From: Jeotgalibacillus soli
GTDB taxonomy: Bacteria; Bacillota; Bacilli; Bacillales; Jeotgalibacillaceae
Direction: 5' to 3'
NCBI RefSeq assembly: GCF_000829435.1
Contig: NZ_JXRP01000009.1
Coordinates: forward strand, 865,720 to 889,719
DNA: 24,000 bases
The notes below the pieces were generated by a model. The model searched no databases. It worked only from the letters and a program-made list of their open reading frames with translations, and had not been told where the DNA came from. Shown piece after piece: positions 15,138 through 23,969 of the stretch. The stretch's first letter is position 1. Every line of letters starts with the position of its first letter. The translations under genes and the position numbers were made by a program.

Positions 15138-15462
15138 ATGTATTTTTACATTTTATTTGCTGAGGATACTGTAATACCGGGAGCGTTTCCTAGCTTTTTC
15201 CTTTGTCGGACGAAGAAATCTTGCCGCGGCAAAGTCTGCTGAGATGTCAGCAGCAATTCGTAATCCATAACTTGTAAAGCAGGTTTTTAATTATTCCTTT
15301 TTAACTAAATTGCATAAATGAATAATCTCAGGCAATACTTTGTACTGTGTTAATTTAAAGGCTTCAAATGTACATCAATTTAATCGTCAGCATTAGGGCA
15401 TTTTCGTGAGCGTTAACATGAAAGATGAAAATCTACTTTTCCTTTTGATTGGAGTGTTAGAA

Positions 15463-16596
15463 ATGAAAGCTGTAACGTATCAAGGGCCAAATAATGTGGC
15501 GGTAAAGCAAGTAGACGACCCGAAAATTGAAAAGAAAGATGATGTCATCGTTAAGATAACATCAACGACGATTTGCGGATCTGATTTACATCTCTATCAA
15601 GGGAATATGCCGTTGCCGAAAGGCTATGTAATTGGACATGAGCCTATGGGCATTGTGGAGGAAGTAGGTCCTGACGTAACGAAAGTAAAAAAGGGAGACC
15701 GTGTTGTCGTTCCTTTTAATGTAGCGTGCGGACAATGTACGTATTGTCAGCATGATCTGACAAGCCAATGTGATAACTCAAATCCTCATTATGATTCGGG
15801 AGGTTATTTTGGCTATACTGAAAAATTCGGGAATCACCCAGGTGGCCAGGCTGAATATTTAAAAGTACCGTTTGGAAACTTCACTCCTTTTCTTGTTCCA
15901 GAATCGTGTGAACTGGAAGATGAATCCTTGCTCTTTTTATCAGATGTCATTCCAACTGCTTATTGGAGTATAAGTCATGCTGGTGTCAAAGAAGGGGATA
16001 CAGTAATCGTTCTCGGGTGTGGTCCTGTAGGCTTGATGGCCCAAAAATTCGCTTGGATGCATGGTGCAAAAAGGGTCATTTCGATTGATCATATTGGCTA
16101 CCGCTTAGATCATGCGAAGAAAATGAATAATGTGGAGATCTTTGACTTTGCCAAATATCCTGATATGGGAGAGCATTTAAAGGAAATTACTAAAGGCGGA
16201 GCAGATGTTGTGGTTGATTGCGTAGGGATGGACGGGAAGAAGTCTCCTCTTGAGTTTGTCGAGCAAAAACTGAAGCTCCAAGGAGGAACGCTTGGACCGA
16301 TTCAAATTGCAACAAAAGCGGTGCGGAAATTTGGTACTGTTCAAATTACAGGGGTGTACGGAGGAAACTATAACAACTTCCCATTTGGCGCTTTTTTCTC
16401 AAGGAACATTACCTTGAAAATGGGACAGGCTCCGGTTATCCCAATTATGCCAATGCTATATGAAAAAATAATGAACAAGGAATTTGATCCAAAAGAGATC
16501 ATTACCCATAAAGTCTCGCTTGATGATGCAAGCAATGCATATAAAATCTTTAATGATCACCAAGATAATGCCATTAAAATTGTATTAAAGCCTTAA
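15463..16596 (+). CDS. Zinc-dependent alcohol/aldehyde dehydrogenase, glutathione-independent formaldehyde-dehydrogenase-like
   Basis: 377 aa from ATG 15463 (MKAVTYQG). Catalytic-zinc signature GHEPMGIVEEVG, structural-zinc cluster CGQCTYCQHDLTSQC and Rossmann motif VLGCGPVGL. The size and the insertion after the Cys cluster are typical of the formaldehyde-dehydrogenase-like subgroup; substrate specificity is not determinable here. Confidence 0.85.
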   Translation: MKAVTYQGPNNVAVKQVDDPKIEKKDDVIVKITSTTICGSDLHLYQGNMPLPKGYVIGHEPMGIVEEVGPDVTKVKKGDRVVVPFNVACGQCTYCQHDLTSQCDNSNPHYDSGGYFGYTEKFGNHPGGQAEYLKVPFGNFTPFLVPESCELEDESLLFLSDVIPTAYWSISHAGVKEGDTVIVLGCGPVGLMAQKFAWMHGAKRVISIDHIGYRLDHAKKMNNVEIFDFAKYPDMGEHLKEITKGGADVVVDCVGMDGKKSPLEFVEQKLKLQGGTLGPIQIATKAVRKFGTVQITGVYGGNYNNFPFGAFFSRNITLKMGQAPVIPIMPMLYEKIMNKEFDPKEIITHKVSLDDASNAYKIFNDHQDNAIKIVLKP

Positions 16597-17024: not shown

Positions 17025-17741
17025 TTATGGATTTGTTGACCACATGCCAGCTGTTTTAATGAAAACACGCGGGTTTAATTTAAGCTGTGCGACCATCAGT
17101 TCAGCAAGATCTTCTGGCTGCATTACATTTTCAGGGTTGCCGCTGATAAGATTTGTTTCGATTGCTAGATCAGTAGCAACTGTACTTGGCGTTAGTGCCG
17201 TAACGCGAATGTTATGCTTTCTTACTTCAAGCATAAGTGATTCCGTTAATCCAAGAACGGCAAATTTAGAAGCACTGTACGCGCTCGTTACTGGAGCTCC
17301 CTTTTGACCAGCAGATGAAGAAACGTTGATGATGTCTCCTACTTTTCTTTCAATCATATCTGGAAGAACGGCTCTAGTAGTATTATAAACACCCATTAGG
17401 TTAACATTTATAATATTTTCCCATTCACTTGCTGAAAGCTCGAGGAATCCTCCAAACTTAGCAATTCCAGCGTTGTTGATTAGAATGTCAATTTGGCCTA
17501 ATTCAGATTTGATTTGATCTGCTGCTTGCTGAACAGCTTCAAGATCAGTAACATCTGCAACAGCTACAGAAGCTTTAACACCCAGTTCTTTCACTTCTGC
17601 TGCTACTTTTTCAAGATTTGCGAGTGTTGTACCGACTAATCCAACATTGATTCCTTCTTTCGCAAAGGCAATGGCAGTTGCTCGGCCGATGCCTCTTCCT
17701 GCTCCAGTAATCAACGCATTTTTTCCATTTAATGAAATCAT
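17025..17741 (-). CDS. Short-chain dehydrogenase/reductase (FabG-like classical SDR)
   Basis: 238 aa from ATG 17741, with RBS AAGGAG 7 nt upstream. Motifs TGAGRGIG (cofactor), NNAG and catalytic S...YSASK. The longer ORF-track start at 17777 lacks an RBS. Confidence 0.9.
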
Positions 17742-17798
17742 CTTATCGCTCCTTATCCAACCAATTTTTAACCCCATACTATTATAGTCAATTTCAGC

Positions 17799-17860
17799 TA
17801 AAAAAGCTGAACAGAAAGACCGAGAAGTTTATTAGAGAACTTTCGGTCTTTCTGTTCAGT
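17799..17860 (-). terminator. Strong rho-independent terminator of hxlAB
   Basis: About 18-22-bp stem CTGAACAGAAAGACCGA(G)AAGTT / AACTTTCGGTCTTTCTGTTCAG (17806-17859), followed on the minus strand by CTTTTTT. Confidence 0.9.
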
Positions 17861-17872
17861 ACAAATATTTAA

Positions 17873-18430
17873 TTACTCAAGGTTAGCATGCTTCCCGTAC
17901 ATTGTATTGGAATCAAGCCCTTTTTTCTCCATGAAACGTAAAATAACTGCATCGAAGAATAGTAAAAGGGTTTGTTCGAAAAGTGATCCCATTGGCTGTA
18001 TGGTTTTATAATCACTCGTCGATTTATCCTTAGGAGATCCAGGTAATTTAATGACTAGATCCGCTAATTCTCCAATTGTAGACTCAGGGAAGATGGTCAC
18101 AGCAATAACTGTTCCACCTAAGCTTTTCGCTTTTTCGGCCATTGAGACTAAGCTTTTTGTTTCTCCTGAGCCGGATGCGATGATAAGAATATCATCTTTT
18201 TCCAGGTTAGCTGTAACCGTTTCACCGACAACATAAGCATCTAATCCCATATGCATCATGCGCATCACGAAGGATTTACCCATGAAACCAGATCTTCCTG
18301 CTCCTGCTACAAAGATTTTCTTTGCTTCAAGAATTTGGTTGACCAGCTGTTCAGCTTGTTCATCAGATAGTAAGTCTGCTGCTCGACTTAACTCATCAAG
18401 GATTTCGTTAAAATATCGAGTTGTCTGCAT
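17873..18430 (-). CDS. hxlB: 6-phospho-3-hexuloisomerase (SIS domain)
   Basis: 185 aa, the same length as B. subtilis HxlB. SIS motifs FVAGAGRSGF and IASGSGET. It starts 9 nt downstream of the hxlA stop. Confidence 0.93.
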   Translation of the reverse strand: MQTTRYFNEILDELSRAADLLSDEQAEQLVNQILEAKKIFVAGAGRSGFMGKSFVMRMMHMGLDAYVVGETVTANLEKDDILIIASGSGETKSLVSMAEKAKSLGGTVIAVTIFPESTIGELADLVIKLPGSPKDKSTSDYKTIQPMGSLFEQTLLLFFDAVILRFMEKKGLDSNTMYGKHANLE

Positions 18431-18439
18431 AATGAATGA

Positions 18440-19072
18440 TTAACCTTGTTTGATTAGTTCTTGCATTTTAGCAGCTGCAGCTTTTTTGTCTTCTTGTCCA
18501 GTAATACCGCCACCAACGATTACTAGATCTGGTTGAGCTTTGATTACTTCTGGAAGAGTTTCAAGCTTGATTCCGCCTGCAACAGCTGTTTTTGCGTTTT
18601 TAACAACGCTTTTAATTGTTGCAAGGTCTTCGAAAGAGTTTTGGCCTTGAGCTTGAAGATCGTAACCAGTGTGAACGCAGATGTAGTCTACGCCAAGCTC
18701 ATCAAGTTCTTTAGCGCGAGTTGCGATGTCTTTTACAGCGATCATGTCAACAAGGATTTGTTTGCCTTGTTTTTTCGCTTCTTCAACTGCACCTTTGATT
18801 GATGCATCTTCAGCCGCACCAAGAATTGTGATGATGTCAGCGCCTGCAGCTGATGCTTGGCTTACTTCGTATCCAGCAGCATCCATGATTTTAAGGTCAG
18901 CTAATACTGTTAGGTTAGGGAATGCAGCTTTAAGTTCTTTAACTGCTTTAAGTCCTTCGTTAATAACGACAGGAGTACCAATTTCTACTACGTCTACATG
19001 CTCTTCTACTTCTTTAACCAATTCAATTGCTTGTGGAATATTTACAAGGTCTAATGCTAGTTGTAATTTCAT
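18440..19072 (-). CDS. hxlA: 3-hexulose-6-phosphate synthase
   Basis: 210 aa, collinear with B. subtilis HxlA from memory: M.LQLALDLVNI, VEIGTPV, LADLKIMDAA, ILVDMIAVK, GVDYICVHTGYDLQA, IAGGIKLETLPEVIKA.PDLVIVGGGI. RBS TAGGAGTG lies 8 nt upstream. Confidence 0.96.
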   Translation of the reverse strand: MKLQLALDLVNIPQAIELVKEVEEHVDVVEIGTPVVINEGLKAVKELKAAFPNLTVLADLKIMDAAGYEVSQASAAGADIITILGAAEDASIKGAVEEAKKQGKQILVDMIAVKDIATRAKELDELGVDYICVHTGYDLQAQGQNSFEDLATIKSVVKNAKTAVAGGIKLETLPEVIKAQPDLVIVGGGITGQEDKKAAAAKMQELIKQG

Positions 19073-19182
19073 CTGTTTAACACTCCTAAAAATTTTTTTG
19101 TTGCAAGTAGTAATATACCCCGAGGGCTGATATTACTTTCAAAATAGGAACACCAATTGTTTCCTATCTCTGCACAGTTATC

Positions 19183-19222
19183 ATTATAAGTCCTATAATA
19201 TTATTTTGTAAGTACGCACTTT
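19183..19222 (-). promoter_or_regulatory. hxlA promoter (-35 TTACAA, 17 nt, -10 TATAAT) with an abutting 15-nt element AAAGTGCGTACTTAC (candidate HxlR activator site)
   Basis: Read on the minus strand: AAAGTGCGTACTTAC (19222-19208) overlaps the -35 TTACAA (19211-19206). The spacer is 17 nt and the -10 TATAAT is at 19188-19183. The same 15-mer with the same geometry occurs at 22330-22369. Confidence 0.6.
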
Positions 19223-19281
19223 TATTTTACATAGTGATAAAAAGTATACTATTGGTTATAATAAGGGTGGAGGTGAAACGA

Positions 19282-19647
19282 ATGTCTCGTATGGAAGGAA
19301 AAATGTTTAATTGTGAGAAAGAGTTGACCCTTTCAGTTATTGGCGGTAAGTGGAAAATGCTGATTTTATGGCATCTCGGAAAAGAAGGAACGAAGCGTTT
19401 TGGTGAATTAAAGGCCCTAATGCCTGGAATTACGCAGCGTATGCTTGTGAACCAGCTGCGAGAGCTGGAGGAAGACCTGATCGTTGAACGAAAAGTATAT
19501 CCTGTTGTTCCTCCTAAGGTTGAGTATTCACTGACAGAACAAGGCCAGAGCTTGATGCCGATTTTGGATTCGATGTATAAATGGGGTAAAGATTATATGG
19601 ATATCATCAACAGGAATAGCGAAGATCGAAGAGAATCCATCAAATAA
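19282..19647 (+). CDS. hxlR: HxlR-family (DUF24) winged-helix regulator, formaldehyde-responsive activator type
   Basis: 121 aa from ATG 19282, with [52 protein letters not shown] matches B. subtilis HxlR from memory. It is divergent from hxlAB, as in B. subtilis. Confidence 0.93.
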
Positions 19648-19703
19648 GCAAAAGCGTATGAACCTAAGCATGTATATCATTAACCGAACTGTTTATTAAA
19701 TAC

Positions 19704-19750
19704 CGTATGTGGCTGCTTTTTTAAAAAGGCTGCTGCATGCGTTTTTTTTT
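19704..19750 (+). terminator. Rho-independent terminator after hxlR
   Basis: 13-bp stem CGTATGTGGCTGC / GCTGCTGCATGCG (three G-U pairs and one mismatch) followed by a run of 9 T (19742-19750). Confidence 0.7.
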
Positions 19751-19901
19751 ATAATCCTTGAAGCGATGGGAAAATATTTTGATTGCCGAATAAAATAGAT
19801 TATAATAAAAGAAACTATCTGAAGTTTCAGGCAGTTGTAAGAACTTATTTTTAAATGGGAAAATAATAGCGTAATTGTATAAAGAATTGGGGGATTTGCG
19901 A

Positions 19902-20693
19902 ATGTCTGCTCTTACGATGATGAGCCCTTCTGAGGCTCGTGAAATGATTCGAAATAATCAATGGGTGAAGCCAACATCAGGTGTTTCTAACGGATTTATT
20001 CAGGCTAACTTAGCTGTGCTTCCAAAGGACTTGGCGTTTGAGTTTCTTCTTTTTTGCCAGCGTAACCCGAAATCTTGTCCTATCATTGATGTGACTGAGC
20101 CGGGATCAGGCATTGCCAGTCTAGCAGCGCCAAATGGTGATATTAAAACAGATATTCCAAAATATCGTGTGTATCGAAATGGAGAGCTTGTAGAGGAAAA
20201 AACAGATGTATCGGATCTTTGGGATGAGAATATGGTCGGTTTTTTAATTGGCTGCAGCTTTACATTTGAAGAGGCACTAATAAAAAACGGCATTCCAATT
20301 CGCCATAATGAGGAAAATTGCAATGTTCCAATGTATAAAACGAATATTCAAAGTGTAAAAGCCGGCCGGTTTGAAGGTCCGATGGTAGTAAGCATGCGCC
20401 CTATGACTGAAAAGGATGCCATCCGAGCTGTACAGGTAACGAGCCGTTTTCCTTCCGTGCACGGGGCGCCTGTTCATATCGGAAATTCTGAAAGCATTGG
20501 CATTAAAAATATTAACGAACCGGATTTCGGTGACCGTGTGACCATAAAAGAGGGAGAGGTTCCTGTCTTTTGGGCTTGCGGAGTCACTCCGCAGGCAGTA
20601 GCGATGCAAGTAAAGCCGGAAATCATGATTACACATGCCCCAGGACATATGTTTATCACTGATTTGAAAAACGAAAAGTTTTCTGTTTTGTAG
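19902..20693 (+). CDS. DUF1445/UPF0317 putative hydro-lyase (YcsI / D-glutamate-cyclase-like family)
   Basis: 263 aa from ATG 19902, with RBS GGGGGA 7 nt upstream. The N-terminal pattern AREMIRNNQWVKPTSGVSNGFIQANLAVLPKDLAFEFLLFCQRNPKSCPIIDV and the C-terminal FWACGVTPQ...ITHAPGHMFITD are typical of this family as I remember it. Confidence 0.8.
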   Translation: MSALTMMSPSEAREMIRNNQWVKPTSGVSNGFIQANLAVLPKDLAFEFLLFCQRNPKSCPIIDVTEPGSGIASLAAPNGDIKTDIPKYRVYRNGELVEEKTDVSDLWDENMVGFLIGCSFTFEEALIKNGIPIRHNEENCNVPMYKTNIQSVKAGRFEGPMVVSMRPMTEKDAIRAVQVTSRFPSVHGAPVHIGNSESIGIKNINEPDFGDRVTIKEGEVPVFWACGVTPQAVAMQVKPEIMITHAPGHMFITDLKNEKFSVL

Positions 20694-20914: not shown

Positions 20915-21937
20915 ATGCCTACATTATTAGATTCGTTTCAAATTAAAGGACTTCAATTGAAAAATCGCATTGTGATGCCTCCAATGTGCCAGTATTCAGT
21001 AACGGAAAAGGACGGTAAGCCGAATGATTGGCATTTTTCACATTATACAAGCCGTGCGATTGGCGGCGCGGGACTGATCATCATGGAAATGACGGATGTA
21101 GAGCCTGATGGAAGAATCACGGATTATGATCTTGGTCTCTGGTCAGATGATCAAATTCCAGCGTTCAAAAAAATTATAGAAGCAAGCCAGGCTTACGGCG
21201 CAAAAGTAGGAATTCAAATTGCTCACGCTGGTCGTAAAGCCGAAGATGCAGCAGTACCTGTATCCTCATCAGCGATTCAATTTTCAGGGCAGTACAAGGA
21301 ACCGCGTGAACTGTCTACTGTAGAAGTGGAAGAAATGGTTGGAAAGTTTGAAGAAGCATTTAAACGTGCGTTAAATGCTGGTGTTGATACAATTGAAATT
21401 CATGGTGCCCATGGTTACCTAATCCATCAATTCCAATCACCGCTGACAAATAAACGTACAGATAAATACGGTGAAGACAAGAGTTTATTCGGCGTAGAAA
21501 TCATTAAAGCTGCCCGTCGAGTGATGCCTGAAGACATGCCGCTGCTCTTTAGAATTTCTGCAGTTGAGTACGCAGAAGGCGGCTATGATTTGGACTATGT
21601 TATTGAATTGGCAAAGCGTTATAAAGAAGCTGGTGTCGATGTATTCCACGTTTCTTCCGGCGGTGAAGGAGAAAGTGGCCCTGCATCAAGCGGACCTGGA
21701 TATCAGGTTGATTTATCTGAAGGAATTAGAAAAGCACTGCATGTACCAACCATTGCAGTAGGCAGAATGGAAGATCCTAAGCTAAGCGATGAAGTCATCC
21801 GTGAAGGAAAAGCCGATCTTGTTGCGGTTGGAAGAGGTATGCTGAGAAATCCTTACTGGGCGAATGAAGCGTCTCTTCAATTAGGAGGAGATCCGCTTAC
21901 GCCGGTTCCTCTGGCAGCAGCGTACAGTATACGATAA
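20915..21937 (+). CDS. namA: NADPH dehydrogenase, Old Yellow Enzyme family (YqjM/NamA type)
   Basis: 340 aa. YqjM-type motifs LKNRIVMPPMCQYS, IQIAHAGRKA, IEIHGAHGYLIHQFQSPLTNKRTDKYG and GRGMLRNPYW. RBS GGAAAGGAAG. Confidence 0.93.
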   Translation: MPTLLDSFQIKGLQLKNRIVMPPMCQYSVTEKDGKPNDWHFSHYTSRAIGGAGLIIMEMTDVEPDGRITDYDLGLWSDDQIPAFKKIIEASQAYGAKVGIQIAHAGRKAEDAAVPVSSSAIQFSGQYKEPRELSTVEVEEMVGKFEEAFKRALNAGVDTIEIHGAHGYLIHQFQSPLTNKRTDKYGEDKSLFGVEIIKAARRVMPEDMPLLFRISAVEYAEGGYDLDYVIELAKRYKEAGVDVFHVSSGGEGESGPASSGPGYQVDLSEGIRKALHVPTIAVGRMEDPKLSDEVIREGKADLVAVGRGMLRNPYWANEASLQLGGDPLTPVPLAAAYSIR

Positions 21938-22127: not shown

Positions 22128-22329
22128 GAAATAATAAACATCTTGACAAAATAAAAAATTATCTTTAACGCAGCATTTTTTAAAAAATCTCATATAAAAT
22201 TTTACATTAATAGTACAAATCCTCTTTAAAAAACCTCTCTGCGTACGTTTTATTACCTTATTATTTATTCATCTCCTCATACAGTATATTTTTTCACACT
22301 ATGTTCTTTTTTTATAACTAGATGTATAT

Positions 22330-22369
22330 AAAGTGCGTACTTACGTAAATAAAATATACGTATTATACT
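22330..22369 (+). promoter_or_regulatory. zwf promoter (-35 TTACGT, 17 nt, -10 TATACT) with the same abutting 15-nt element AAAGTGCGTACTTAC
   Basis: AAAGTGCGTACTTAC (22330-22344) overlaps the -35 TTACGT (22341-22346). The spacer is 17 nt and the -10 TATACT is at 22364-22369. The orientation relative to the downstream gene is identical to the hxlA site. The predicted leader is about 135-140 nt. Confidence 0.55.
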
Positions 22370-22511
22370 TACTCTCACGCAAGTAATTGCGGAATTTGGG
22401 AATGCTAGTGCCTATCTATGAAGAGAACGACAACGATGGGATAAAGATTTTCAATAGACGAAAGTCTTAAAAATATAGTGCTGTAAAAAACATCAAGTGG
22501 AGGAATGCAAA

Positions 22512-23969
22512 GTGGAGTCAATGTCATTTGTATTGTTTGGGGCTACTGGGGATTTAGCAAAAAGAAAAATATTCCCAGCTTTATATAATTTATTTCTTGA
22601 TGAGAAAATGCCAGAGGCCTATTCCATTATTGGATTAGGAAGATCATCTTTATCTCATGATGAATTTCAAACCCATGTTGAAGAGTCGCTTAAGACATTT
22701 TCCAGAAGAACTGTAGCGAATAATGCCGAGTTTGGTGAATTTATTAAAGCATTTCGTTATCAGCAGCTGGATGTGACAAAGCCTGAAGCCTATAAAAATT
22801 TGCTTACTTTTATTAAACAGAGAGAGAAAGAATTGAATCTTCCTGAAAACCGCCTCTTTTATTTATCGGTTGCTCCTGAATTTTTTGATGATATTGCCTT
22901 AAATATTAAAGAAAGCGGATTAGGAACAACGAAAGGCTGGAAACGCCTAATTATTGAAAAGCCGTTCGGTCATGATTTGGAGTCTGCTCGCGATCTTAAT
23001 ACTAAATTAAGCAGAGCATTTAAAGAAGATGAAATTTACCGTATTGATCATTATCTTGGAAAACCAATGGTTCAAAACCTTGAAACGCTGGAATTCGCAA
23101 ACCCGGTACTTCAAGCGATTTGGAATAAAGAGTACATTGCCAATGTACAAATTACTGCAAGTGAAATCGTAGGTGTGGAAGATCGGGCAGGTTATTACGA
23201 CCAGGCTGGTGCAATTCGTGATATGGTACAAAATCACATGCTTCAAATGCTGATGATGACAGCCATGCATCTGCCAAAGAAAATCAGTGCAGATGATATT
23301 CGCGATGAGAAAAGAAAAGTGATGGAATCTTTACGTTTATTATCGAAAGAAGAGGTCGGAGCTCACATTATACGCGGTCAATATGATGCAGGAGAAATTA
23401 AAGGTGAGCCTGTTGTTAAATATACAGTAGAGCCAGGAGTTGATGCTTTTTCTACAAATGATACATTTGTTGCGGCACGCTTATGGATAGACAATGATTT
23501 CTGGAAAGGGGTACCTTTCTACATCCGTACAGGAAAGAGAATGAAAGAAAAATCAACGCGTATCGTCATCGAATTTAAAAACACATTAAAGGATCTTTAC
23601 CAAACAGAAGATCAAAAGACTGCACCGAATTTATTAGTCGTTCATATAAGTCCGAATGAAGGAGTTTCCTTCCAGTTAAACAGTAAAAACCCATTGAAAA
23701 ATGGCATGATAGAACCTGTAACAGCTGATTTTTCACCGGTTACAAAAGAAGTGCCTGAAGCCTATGAAATATTACTGTTTGATGCATTGCAAGGCGATTC
23801 AACATTTTTTGCGCATTGGGATGAGGTCGAGCTATCGTGGAAATGGGTACAGCCCGTTTTGGAAGCATTCGAGGAAAACAGCATTCCGCTTCAAACGTAC
23901 CCTGCAGGATCAATGGGACCAGAAGCATCAGACAAGCTGCTTGAAGAAAACGGCTTTCATTGGTGGTAA
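22512..23969 (+). CDS. zwf: Glucose-6-phosphate 1-dehydrogenase
   Basis: Motifs FGATGDLAKRK (NADP site), IEKPFGHDL, RIDHYLGK (active-site signature) and VPFYIRTGKRM. Collinear with B. subtilis Zwf from memory. Preferred start is GTG 22512, with RBS GGAGGA (22499-22504) 7 nt upstream. Alternatives are ATG 22521 and GTG 22497. Stop TAA at 23967-23969. Confidence 0.93.
   Translation: MESMSFVLFGATGDLAKRKIFPALYNLFLDEKMPEAYSIIGLGRSSLSHDEFQTHVEESLKTFSRRTVANNAEFGEFIKAFRYQQLDVTKPEAYKNLLTFIKQREKELNLPENRLFYLSVAPEFFDDIALNIKESGLGTTKGWKRLIIEKPFGHDLESARDLNTKLSRAFKEDEIYRIDHYLGKPMVQNLETLEFANPVLQAIWNKEYIANVQITASEIVGVEDRAGYYDQAGAIRDMVQNHMLQMLMMTAMHLPKKISADDIRDEKRKVMESLRLLSKEEVGAHIIRGQYDAGEIKGEPVVKYTVEPGVDAFSTNDTFVAARLWIDNDFWKGVPFYIRTGKRMKEKSTRIVIEFKNTLKDLYQTEDQKTAPNLLVVHISPNEGVSFQLNSKNPLKNGMIEPVTADFSPVTKEVPEAYEILLFDALQGDSTFFAHWDEVELSWKWVQPVLEAFEENSIPLQTYPAGSMGPEASDKLLEENGFHWW

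Follow-up and report, generated by a model that had tools for sequence, protein, structure and literature searches.

The window analysed here is a stretch of 24,000 nucleotides (nt) from Jeotgalibacillus soli (contig NZ_JXRP01000009.1, positions 865,720 to 889,719), in which an identical 15-mer, AAAGTGCGTACTTAC, stands against the -35 of two candidate promoters, that of the formaldehyde-fixation genes hxlAB and that of zwf, a gene of the oxidative branch. This 15-mer is very probably the promoter-proximal box of an operator for the activator HxlR, which would induce both transcription units together. Genetically encoded sensors for formaldehyde are built on HxlR, the textbook example of an activator that senses this compound. 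The sequence of the element, its register with the promoters, its conservation, the orthology of the regulator and the collinearity of the operator with a site bound in vitro are direct observations.

The shared operator

The elements of the two control regions and the genes that they face are listed below. BRH1 and BRH2 are, as reportedly described by Yurimoto et al. in 2005, two adjacent 25-bp regions that are both required for HxlR binding and activation.

19229-19251, minus strand: distal HxlR-type box of the hxlAB promoter (BRH1 equivalent), TAGTATACTTTTTATCACTATGT
19208-19222, minus strand: proximal HxlR-type box of the hxlAB promoter (BRH2 equivalent), with the core AAAGTGCGTACTT at 19210-19222
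19183-19211, minus strand: hxlAB core promoter, with -35 TTACAA (19211-19206), a 17-nt spacer and -10 TATAAT (19188-19183)
22282-22304, plus strand: distal HxlR-type box of the zwf promoter, CAGTATATTTTTTCACACTATGT
22305-22328, plus strand: extra unit of the zwf operator, a degenerate second copy of TTTTTnnCACTATGT, here TCTTTTTTTATAACTAGATGTATA
22330-22344, plus strand: proximal HxlR-type box of the zwf promoter, identical to the hxlA 15-mer
22341-22369, plus strand: zwf core promoter, with a weak -35 TTACGT (22341-22346), a 17-nt spacer and -10 TATACT (22364-22369)
17873-18430, minus strand: hxlB
18440-19072, minus strand: hxlA (NCBIfam TIGR03128)
17873-19072, minus strand: hxlAB as a whole (TIGR03128, 302 bits; TIGR03127, 261 bits)
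19282-19647, plus strand: hxlR, 121 residues, divergent from hxlAB; by orthology the formaldehyde-sensing transcription activator
22497 (probably 22512, GTG start) to 23969, plus strand: zwf (TIGR00871, 583 bits)

Within the window the exact 15-mer occurs only at 19222-19208 (minus strand) and at 22330-22344 (plus strand), oriented in each case toward the downstream gene, as a preliminary description of this DNA had stated; no further copy was found in the 24 kb when up to three mismatches were allowed. At both promoters the 15-mer overlaps a weak -35 by 4 nt and is followed by 17 nt and a -10, so that the register proposed earlier (TTACAA...TATAAT at hxlA, TTACGT...TATACT at zwf) was confirmed on reading the sequence, and the inverted core AAGT-N4-ACTT is found in both copies. 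The 15-nt element is real and shared, but the conserved unit is the 13-mer AAAGTGCGTACTT, the terminal AC of the longer version being merely the local -35. The final two T of the 13-mer are the first two bases of the -35 at hxlA, an overlap of 2 bp. A consensus promoter scan reads the hxlAB promoter as CTTACA-18-TATAAT. Both promoters fit the pattern of activator-dependent promoters of the sigma-A type, with a good -10, a poor -35 and a 17-nt spacer.

The preliminary description was right in placing the site against the -35, but it missed a second, distal box, TAGTATACTTTTTnnCACTATGT, which lies upstream of the proximal one at both promoters, so that the operator extends beyond the 15-mer, its proximal part, and measures about 43 nt at hxlA and about 62 nt at zwf. 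A repeat search recovers the same relationship as a shared element, AGTATAYTTTTTYACACTATGT, 86% identical between 19250-19229 (minus strand) and 22283-22304 (plus strand). The distal box and the 15-mer are 6 nt apart at hxlA and 25 nt apart at zwf; measured to the 16-nt proximal matrix site, which begins one base before the 15-mer (19208-19223; 22329-22344), the gaps are 5 and 24 nt. Compared with the hxlA operator, that of zwf has one 19-nt insert between the boxes, with a conserved ACTA. A length of 19 nt does not correspond to an integral number of turns of the helix, and the distal box is therefore phased differently in the two classes of promoter.

Two weight matrices were made from 63 distinct hxlA operators of other species, with the window and the near-identical J. 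proteolyticus locus (L001) excluded. In the window the proximal matrix scores 26.1 bits at 19208-19223 and 25.4 bits at 22329-22344 (maximum 28), the next-best site reaching 8.9 bits, and the distal matrix selects only 19229-19251 (36.2 bits; maximum 36.9) and 22282-22304 (28.5 bits).

On the plus strand the hxlA distal box overlaps the hexamers of a candidate hxlR promoter, GTGATA-17-TATAAT, and a conserved TATACT, an overlap that makes autoregulation of hxlR plausible.

The operator is modular, in that the number of its 19-nt TTTTTnnCACTATGT-like units varies. Most hxlA promoters have a single unit; most zwf promoters and a few hxlA promoters have two, and one locus (L063) has three, with gaps of 5, 24 and 43 nt as the result; the loci that bear this observation are the window, L022, L031, L038, L043, L059, L060 and L063.

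The regulator and the site bound in vitro

The HxlR of the window scores 197 bits against Bacillus subtilis HxlR (PDB 7BZD, 7BZG), keeps Phe9, Cys11, Lys13 and Met26 (FNCEK at residues 9-13) and is, judged by its sequence, a clear orthologue of it. The gene is 73-96% identical to the hxlR genes adjoining hxlA in at least 70 loci. In the B. subtilis protein, formaldehyde links Cys11 to Lys13 through an intrahelical methylene bridge and the winged-helix domains move, and this cross-link raises both the affinity for DNA and hxlAB transcription (PMC7835342). The gel shifts were performed with a 50-bp oligonucleotide from the B. subtilis hxlAB promoter, BRH, CCTCACAGTATCCTCCAAGTAACTTGTTGACTTCAAAGTGCCTACTTCTC (Zhu et al. 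2021, PMC7835342 supplement), while the crystallised DNA is a palindromised BRH-1, CAGTATCCTCGAGGATACTG (PMC7835342 supplement).

The hxlA operator of the window aligns without gaps across the whole BRH oligonucleotide. At the distal end AGTATCC of B. subtilis corresponds to AGTATAC of the window, with CAGTATCC... of BRH-1 set against the distal box, and at the proximal end AAAGTGCCTACTT corresponds to AAAGTGCGTACTT. The zwf operator aligns to the same oligonucleotide with one 19-nt insert, and the columns GTAT, CT and AAGTGC-TACTT are invariant in the alignment of BRH with the window and zwf operators. The B. subtilis promoter thus resembles that of the window in its distal AGTAT(C/A)C..., in the 29 nt from the start of this element to a proximal AAAGTGC(C/G)TACTT placed against the -35, in an orthologous regulator with Cys11 and Lys13, and in a regulator gene divergent from hxlAB. 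The two differ in that reviews give hxlAB (hps-phi) as the only target of HxlR, whereas the window has a second operator, at zwf, with the extra 19-nt unit; in addition, the operator consensus outside B. subtilis is far more uniform than the B. subtilis sequence.

The spacing within the distal box agrees with that of the crystal-type site, AGTAT-N8-GCACT. The proximal box is a compact palindrome, AAGTGC-GTACTT, with no conserved partner at the crystal spacing, and for that reason a half-site assignment derived from the crystallised DNA was dropped. As the operator holds several half-sites, more than one HxlR dimer may bind.

The geometry is that of class II type activators, whose site likewise overlaps the -35 (here by 2 bp), with a degenerate -35 and a good -10; the HxlR operator differs in having several half-sites. 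YodB, HypR and QsrR, of the DUF24/MarR type, share the winged-helix fold and half-sites of the AGTA/TACT type, and are weaker matches to the HxlR of the window. Those proteins are thiol-based repressors released by electrophiles, whereas HxlR gains affinity for DNA and activates.

Recurrence of the operator across genera

The recurrence of the operator was evaluated in 78 hxlA loci from bacterial genomes (1.48 Mb, with about 82 copies of hxlA), using a threshold of 17 bits for the proximal box. Upstream of hxlA nearly all of them read TAGTATACTTTTTnnCACTATrTnnnnnnAAAGTGCGTACTT, followed by 21 nt and TATACT, and the distal box is likewise conserved in nearly all hxlA loci. The motif is present before the hxlA orthologues of related species, so that the refuting condition named in the preliminary description, its absence there, does not hold: among the 101 proximal-box matches of at least 17 bits, 75 face hxlA. 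Another 19 face zwf; in two further cases a long leader or what is left of an Fe-alcohol dehydrogenase (Fe-ADH) gene separates the box from zwf (L050 7534, L062 9528). One faces a full-length gnd (L050 9233), so that the suggested search upstream of gnd did reveal an own box, in Lysinibacillus. The remaining matches face a CN-hydrolase and GNAT pair (two; L037, L064) or stand beside extra hxlR copies (two).

A box is present at 21 of the 23 zwf copies in the 78 loci; the exceptions are L041, which has the distal box alone, and the second copy of L058, with an 11-bit remnant. In almost all of the boxed loci zwf is followed by gnd_rel, and often then by pgi, and the search upstream of pgi, also suggested earlier, led to boxes followed by zwf-gnd-pgi clusters, among others in Geobacillus and Parageobacillus. 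No recognisable box was found at hxlAB in two Macrococcus loci and one Sporolactobacillaceae locus (L026, L027, L074).

With regard to the promoters, the distance from the box to the -10 is the same at all 22 zwf sites (TATACT in 20, TATAAT in 2), and about 72 of the 78 hxlA sites have a -10-like hexamer (TATACT or TATAAT) at that distance. At the -35 the sites read TTnnnn, a hexamer that is weak and poorly conserved. A fixed -10 together with a variable, weak -35 is the pattern of an activator-dependent promoter. When 14 zwf promoters from different genera are compared, the sequence drifts except at AG(T), two ACTA units, AAGTGCGTACTT and the -10, which do not vary; the distal box is conserved in the zwf promoters of other genera as well. 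The gap between the boxes is 24 nt at most zwf sites and 5 nt at most hxlA sites, and the few hxlA promoters with a gap of 24 or 43 nt correspond to one or two extra 19-nt units. The recurrence of the 24-nt gap in other zwf promoters indicates that the zwf promoter of the window is a variant of long standing that has been conserved, rather than one newly copied from the promoter next to it.

Three further observations were made in these loci. Scaffold 4 of J. proteolyticus (L056) holds a second hxlAB copy, with hxlR upstream and a degenerate proximal box, AGAGTGCATATTT. In L037 (about 1210, minus strand) and L064 (about 4263, minus strand) an HxlR-type operator lies upstream of a pair of genes, for a nitrilase-like CN-hydrolase (284-287 residues) and a GNAT acetyltransferase. 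In Parageobacillus and Thermaerobacillus the same pair, located between hxlAB and hxlR, has a strong distal box only (L082 4700-4722, L083 5637-5659). From its operators, the pair may be a further member of the HxlR regulon.

Additional loci were fetched through homologues of Zwf. In Bacillus methanolicus phi-hps is divergent from zwf and one box faces each gene, that of zwf being ATAAGTGCGTACTTAC with the register TTACAT-17-TATACT intact. In Geobacillus subterraneus and Parageobacillus thermoglucosidasius hxlR is divergent from an operator of the 24-nt-gap type, which is followed by Fe-ADH, zwf, an NAD-type 6-phosphogluconate dehydrogenase gene and pgi; Thermaerobacillus has the same arrangement, but with Fe-ADH reduced to a remnant. 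Such a remnant lies in the leader between operator and zwf at L062 (8653-9528) and L082 (5675-6000), and the gene is intact in L081 and L083 (Geobacillus, Parageobacillus). Its presence means either that the operator ancestrally drove Fe-ADH-zwf-gnd or that the dehydrogenase gene was inserted and later lost. Boxes also precede zwf-gnd(-pgi) in J. malaysiensis, in Rossellomorea vietnamensis and in 28-kb contigs labelled B. subtilis. In contrast, the LysR-linked zwf-tkt-gnd-tal cluster of Priestia megaterium, taken as a negative control, has no box.

In J. malaysiensis (L089 4083-5459) hxlR and the hydro-lyase gene are absent between hxlA and the OYE gene, and both operators are kept; with hxlR missing from the locus, the regulator must be encoded elsewhere.

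Published expression data

Evolved methanol-using strains of P. thermoglucosidasius with the substitution M26I in HxlR show HxlA and HxlB increased 15- to 112-fold and Zwf increased more than 550-fold, and the authors state that no mutation accounts for Zwf (10.1101/2024.10.31.621308). The action of HxlR M26I on the zwf operator would be the simplest explanation of this rise. The insertion of an insertion sequence upstream of adhT was considered as another cause and rejected: the adhT primers of those authors are absent from the hxlR-Fe-ADH-zwf locus, and the Fe-ADH beside hxlR begins MNRFTIPRD while adhT begins MKTAKIVQ, which together mean that adhT is a gene distinct from the Fe-ADH upstream of zwf and does not belong to the zwf locus. 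In B. methanolicus the zwf paralogue BMMGA3_06850, which adjoins hps-phi, rose together with hxlR (10.1101/2024.10.14.618164).

An RNA-seq study of strain MGA3 lists an antisense RNA, as0054 (chromosome 1347222-1347449), at the 5'-untranslated region of BMMGA3_06850. This RNA may simply reflect divergent transcription over the shared hps-zwf control region. The supplement of the same study was set aside as a source of start-site evidence for zwf: its available part lists only the antisense RNA, which was not placed on locus L079.

Mechanism and alternative explanations

The mechanism that would follow from these observations begins with the cross-linking of Cys11 and Lys13 of HxlR by formaldehyde, a step demonstrated for the B. 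subtilis protein. Activated HxlR dimers would then bind the operator and recruit RNA polymerase to the hxlAB and zwf promoters, which would be poor on their own; recruitment is suggested by the two bases that the proximal box shares with the -35. In this way the enzymes of formaldehyde fixation (HxlA, HxlB) would be induced together with those of the oxidative branch (Pgi, Zwf, Gnd). HxlA would consume ribulose 5-phosphate and HxlB yield fructose 6-phosphate, from which Pgi, Zwf and Gnd would return ribulose 5-phosphate together with CO2 and reduced cofactor, so that co-induction would keep the acceptor, ribulose 5-phosphate, available and allow formaldehyde to be fully oxidised through the ribulose monophosphate (RuMP) pathway in its cyclic dissimilatory form. 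Every computational test that was run agrees with the earlier proposal of an HxlR activator site at both promoters, and hence with a probable co-regulation of zwf and hxlAB.

Several points weigh against co-induction by HxlR. In P. thermoglucosidasius Zwf was reported up and Pgi was not (10.1101/2024.10.31.621308), although pgi sits downstream of zwf in the locus of that organism, which may have a second pgi. The oxidative branch of B. methanolicus was slightly higher on mannitol than on methanol, according to earlier work as it is cited in PMC7511216, and the zwf box of this organism is weaker, at 17.5 bits. None of the cited experiments in P. thermoglucosidasius and B. methanolicus was designed to examine the control of zwf by HxlR. 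As hxlA, or else Zwf of the hxl-linked type, served to gather the loci, the sample contains hardly any housekeeping zwf genes. In the window, a generic promoter scan does not call the zwf promoter, its -35 being too poor, so that the assignment of this candidate promoter rests on conservation; between zwf and the OYE gene that precedes it no terminator was detected, so that some read-through transcription is possible. Finally, HxlR binding, activation and formaldehyde induction in Jeotgalibacillus are what we infer from sequence.

The notion that HxlR represses or fine-tunes at zwf, or that another regulator, such as a DUF24/MarR paralogue, uses the zwf box, is the alternative that survives best, and is unlikely. 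Most members of the DUF24 family are repressors, extra hxlR-like genes are found in several loci, the architecture of the zwf operator, longer by 19 nt, could alter the outcome of binding, and for B. methanolicus the published picture of how the oxidative pentose phosphate branch is expressed is mixed. However, the register from box to -10 at zwf is that of the activated hxlAB promoter, and a weak -35 belongs to the geometry of activation. Zwf went up, not down, with HxlA and HxlB in the HxlR M26I strain, and zwf rose with hxlR in B. methanolicus. Both promoters carry the identical proximal box, so that no second regulator need be invoked.

Even less probable is the idea that the zwf promoter arose recently, as a local duplicate of the one at hxlA, or is the baggage of a mobile cassette, with boxes that are idle at zwf. 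The set hxlBA-hxlR-zwf-gnd-pgi is clearly mobile, to judge from its DNA identity of 93-95% across genera and from the 28-kb contigs with a resolvase, and part of the conservation could stem from shared descent of the cassette. Yet the zwf operator has an architecture of its own, with a gap of 24 nt as opposed to 5, and this architecture is retained in Jeotgalibacillus, Parageobacillus, Paenisporosarcina, Fictibacillus and B. methanolicus despite wholly diverged flanks. The spacers drift, but the boxes and the -10 do not vary, which argues for selection on function. The zwf site also survives changes of gene order, since it is divergent from hxlA in Neobacillus and B. methanolicus and elsewhere stands behind an Fe-ADH gene or its remnant.

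That the two copies match by chance in AT-rich intergenic sequence and have no common function can practically be discounted: a pair of such 15-mers in 24 kb is not rare (with up to three mismatches, a mean of 0.46 matches per shuffle and at least two in 7 of 100 shuffles, which makes the earlier warning that the pair alone is indecisive a fair one), but matrices made without the window single out precisely the sites in question, with scores of 25-36 bits, 500 shuffles of the window gave top scores of 23.6 bits (proximal) and 20.6 bits (distal) with none of the 500 reaching 25 or 28 bits respectively, the distal box is also common to both promoters, and the target pair hxlA and zwf recurs in more than 20 genera.

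A probable mobile module

The module hxlB-hxlA, hxlR, zwf, gnd_rel and pgi (L003 3500-11300; L004, L006-L009, L085, L086) is conserved at 93-95% DNA identity. Copies at this identity are found in Oceanobacillus bengalensis, Bacillus sp. PS06, B. yapensis, Paenibacillus provencensis, Niallia hominis and Sutcliffiella, and also on the 28-kb contigs labelled B. subtilis, which end in a resolvase gene. From its sequence, the module looks like a horizontally mobile formaldehyde island.

A broader proposal is that HxlR, more than the regulator of one operon, is the single switch of a mobile and self-contained formaldehyde-oxidising module (hxlAB with zwf-gnd-pgi and sometimes Fe-ADH), in which the gaps of 5 and 24 nt set different thresholds or induction ratios for the two halves. 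It is a tentative idea, and rather doubtful as it stands; if true, the two gaps would set the split between the assimilation of carbon and its burning to CO2.

Relation to previous knowledge

The operator and its regulator were already known, and as far as hxlA is concerned the finding adds one more example of what B. subtilis shows. Control by HxlR of zwf (or of gnd, pgi or Fe-ADH) was not found in the searchable literature, although a database may already list it, the RegPrecise-based reconstruction of Leyn et al. 2013 lying outside what was covered; zwf is apparently unreported as an HxlR target. The clustering of hps and phi with zwf and gnd had previously been noted in the genomes of methylotrophic Bacillus. 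The cyclic dissimilatory RuMP pathway of methylotrophs such as B. methanolicus uses the same set of enzymes (Hps, Phi, Pgi, Zwf and Gnd), but in the searchable papers the clustering is described without a common operator or regulator, whereas here a common cis element is found, which would tie both halves of the cycle to a single formaldehyde sensor, and in non-methylotrophs.

If co-induction by HxlR is correct, many Bacillales would induce the whole cyclic oxidation route by means of one sensor, and the regeneration of ribulose 5-phosphate would be secured when formaldehyde appears. It would also offer a testable explanation for the more than 550-fold rise of Zwf in P. thermoglucosidasius and for the co-regulated zwf paralogue of B. 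methanolicus. In the engineering of synthetic methylotrophs the loss of carbon through Zwf is a design problem, and a zwf driven by HxlR would be worth knowing about and possibly removing. The finding is logical rather than startling, and well supported.

Neighbouring genes and minor observations

Two further genes lie between hxlR and zwf:

19875-20693, plus strand: putative hydro-lyase
20915-21937, plus strand: OYE/NamA flavoenzyme

The HxlA of the window is 99% identical to that of J. proteolyticus, whose locus L001 is syntenic with the window, with 94% DNA identity across the hxl-zwf region. In L001 zwf is followed by gnd_rel and an Fe-ADH-like gene, from which the window probably stops just short of gnd_rel, and by this comparison its zwf is probably the first gene of a zwf-gnd operon.

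Both transcription units have long leaders, of about 135 nt for zwf (to the GTG at 22512) and about 105 nt for hxlA (to the ATG), at 22370-22511 and 19073-19182 of the window. The zwf leaders of several genera have in common GCnCAAGTAAT or GCAAAGCAAT a few bases past the -10. A structured RNA in these leaders was considered and rejected, since no Rfam match at the gathering threshold was found anywhere in the window.

Directly after hxlR, at 19698-19747, there is an imperfect palindrome of 28 nt with T-runs, which probably acts as the hxlR terminator; the generic terminator scan gave no call there. A perfect 17-bp hairpin followed by a T-run, at 17794-17859, resembles a terminator of hxlAB and is located between hxlB and the gene of a short-chain dehydrogenase/reductase (SDR; 17025-17777, minus strand; 3-ketoacyl-ACP reductase-like, PRK07666). 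The SDR gene also comes after hxlB in about 10 other loci, with 77-83% identity. At 2 kb from hxlB, a Zn-dependent alcohol dehydrogenase (15406-16596, plus strand), with no HxlR box, resembles glutathione-independent formaldehyde dehydrogenase, although it scores well under the family cut-off, and J. malaysiensis has a similar enzyme in the corresponding place.

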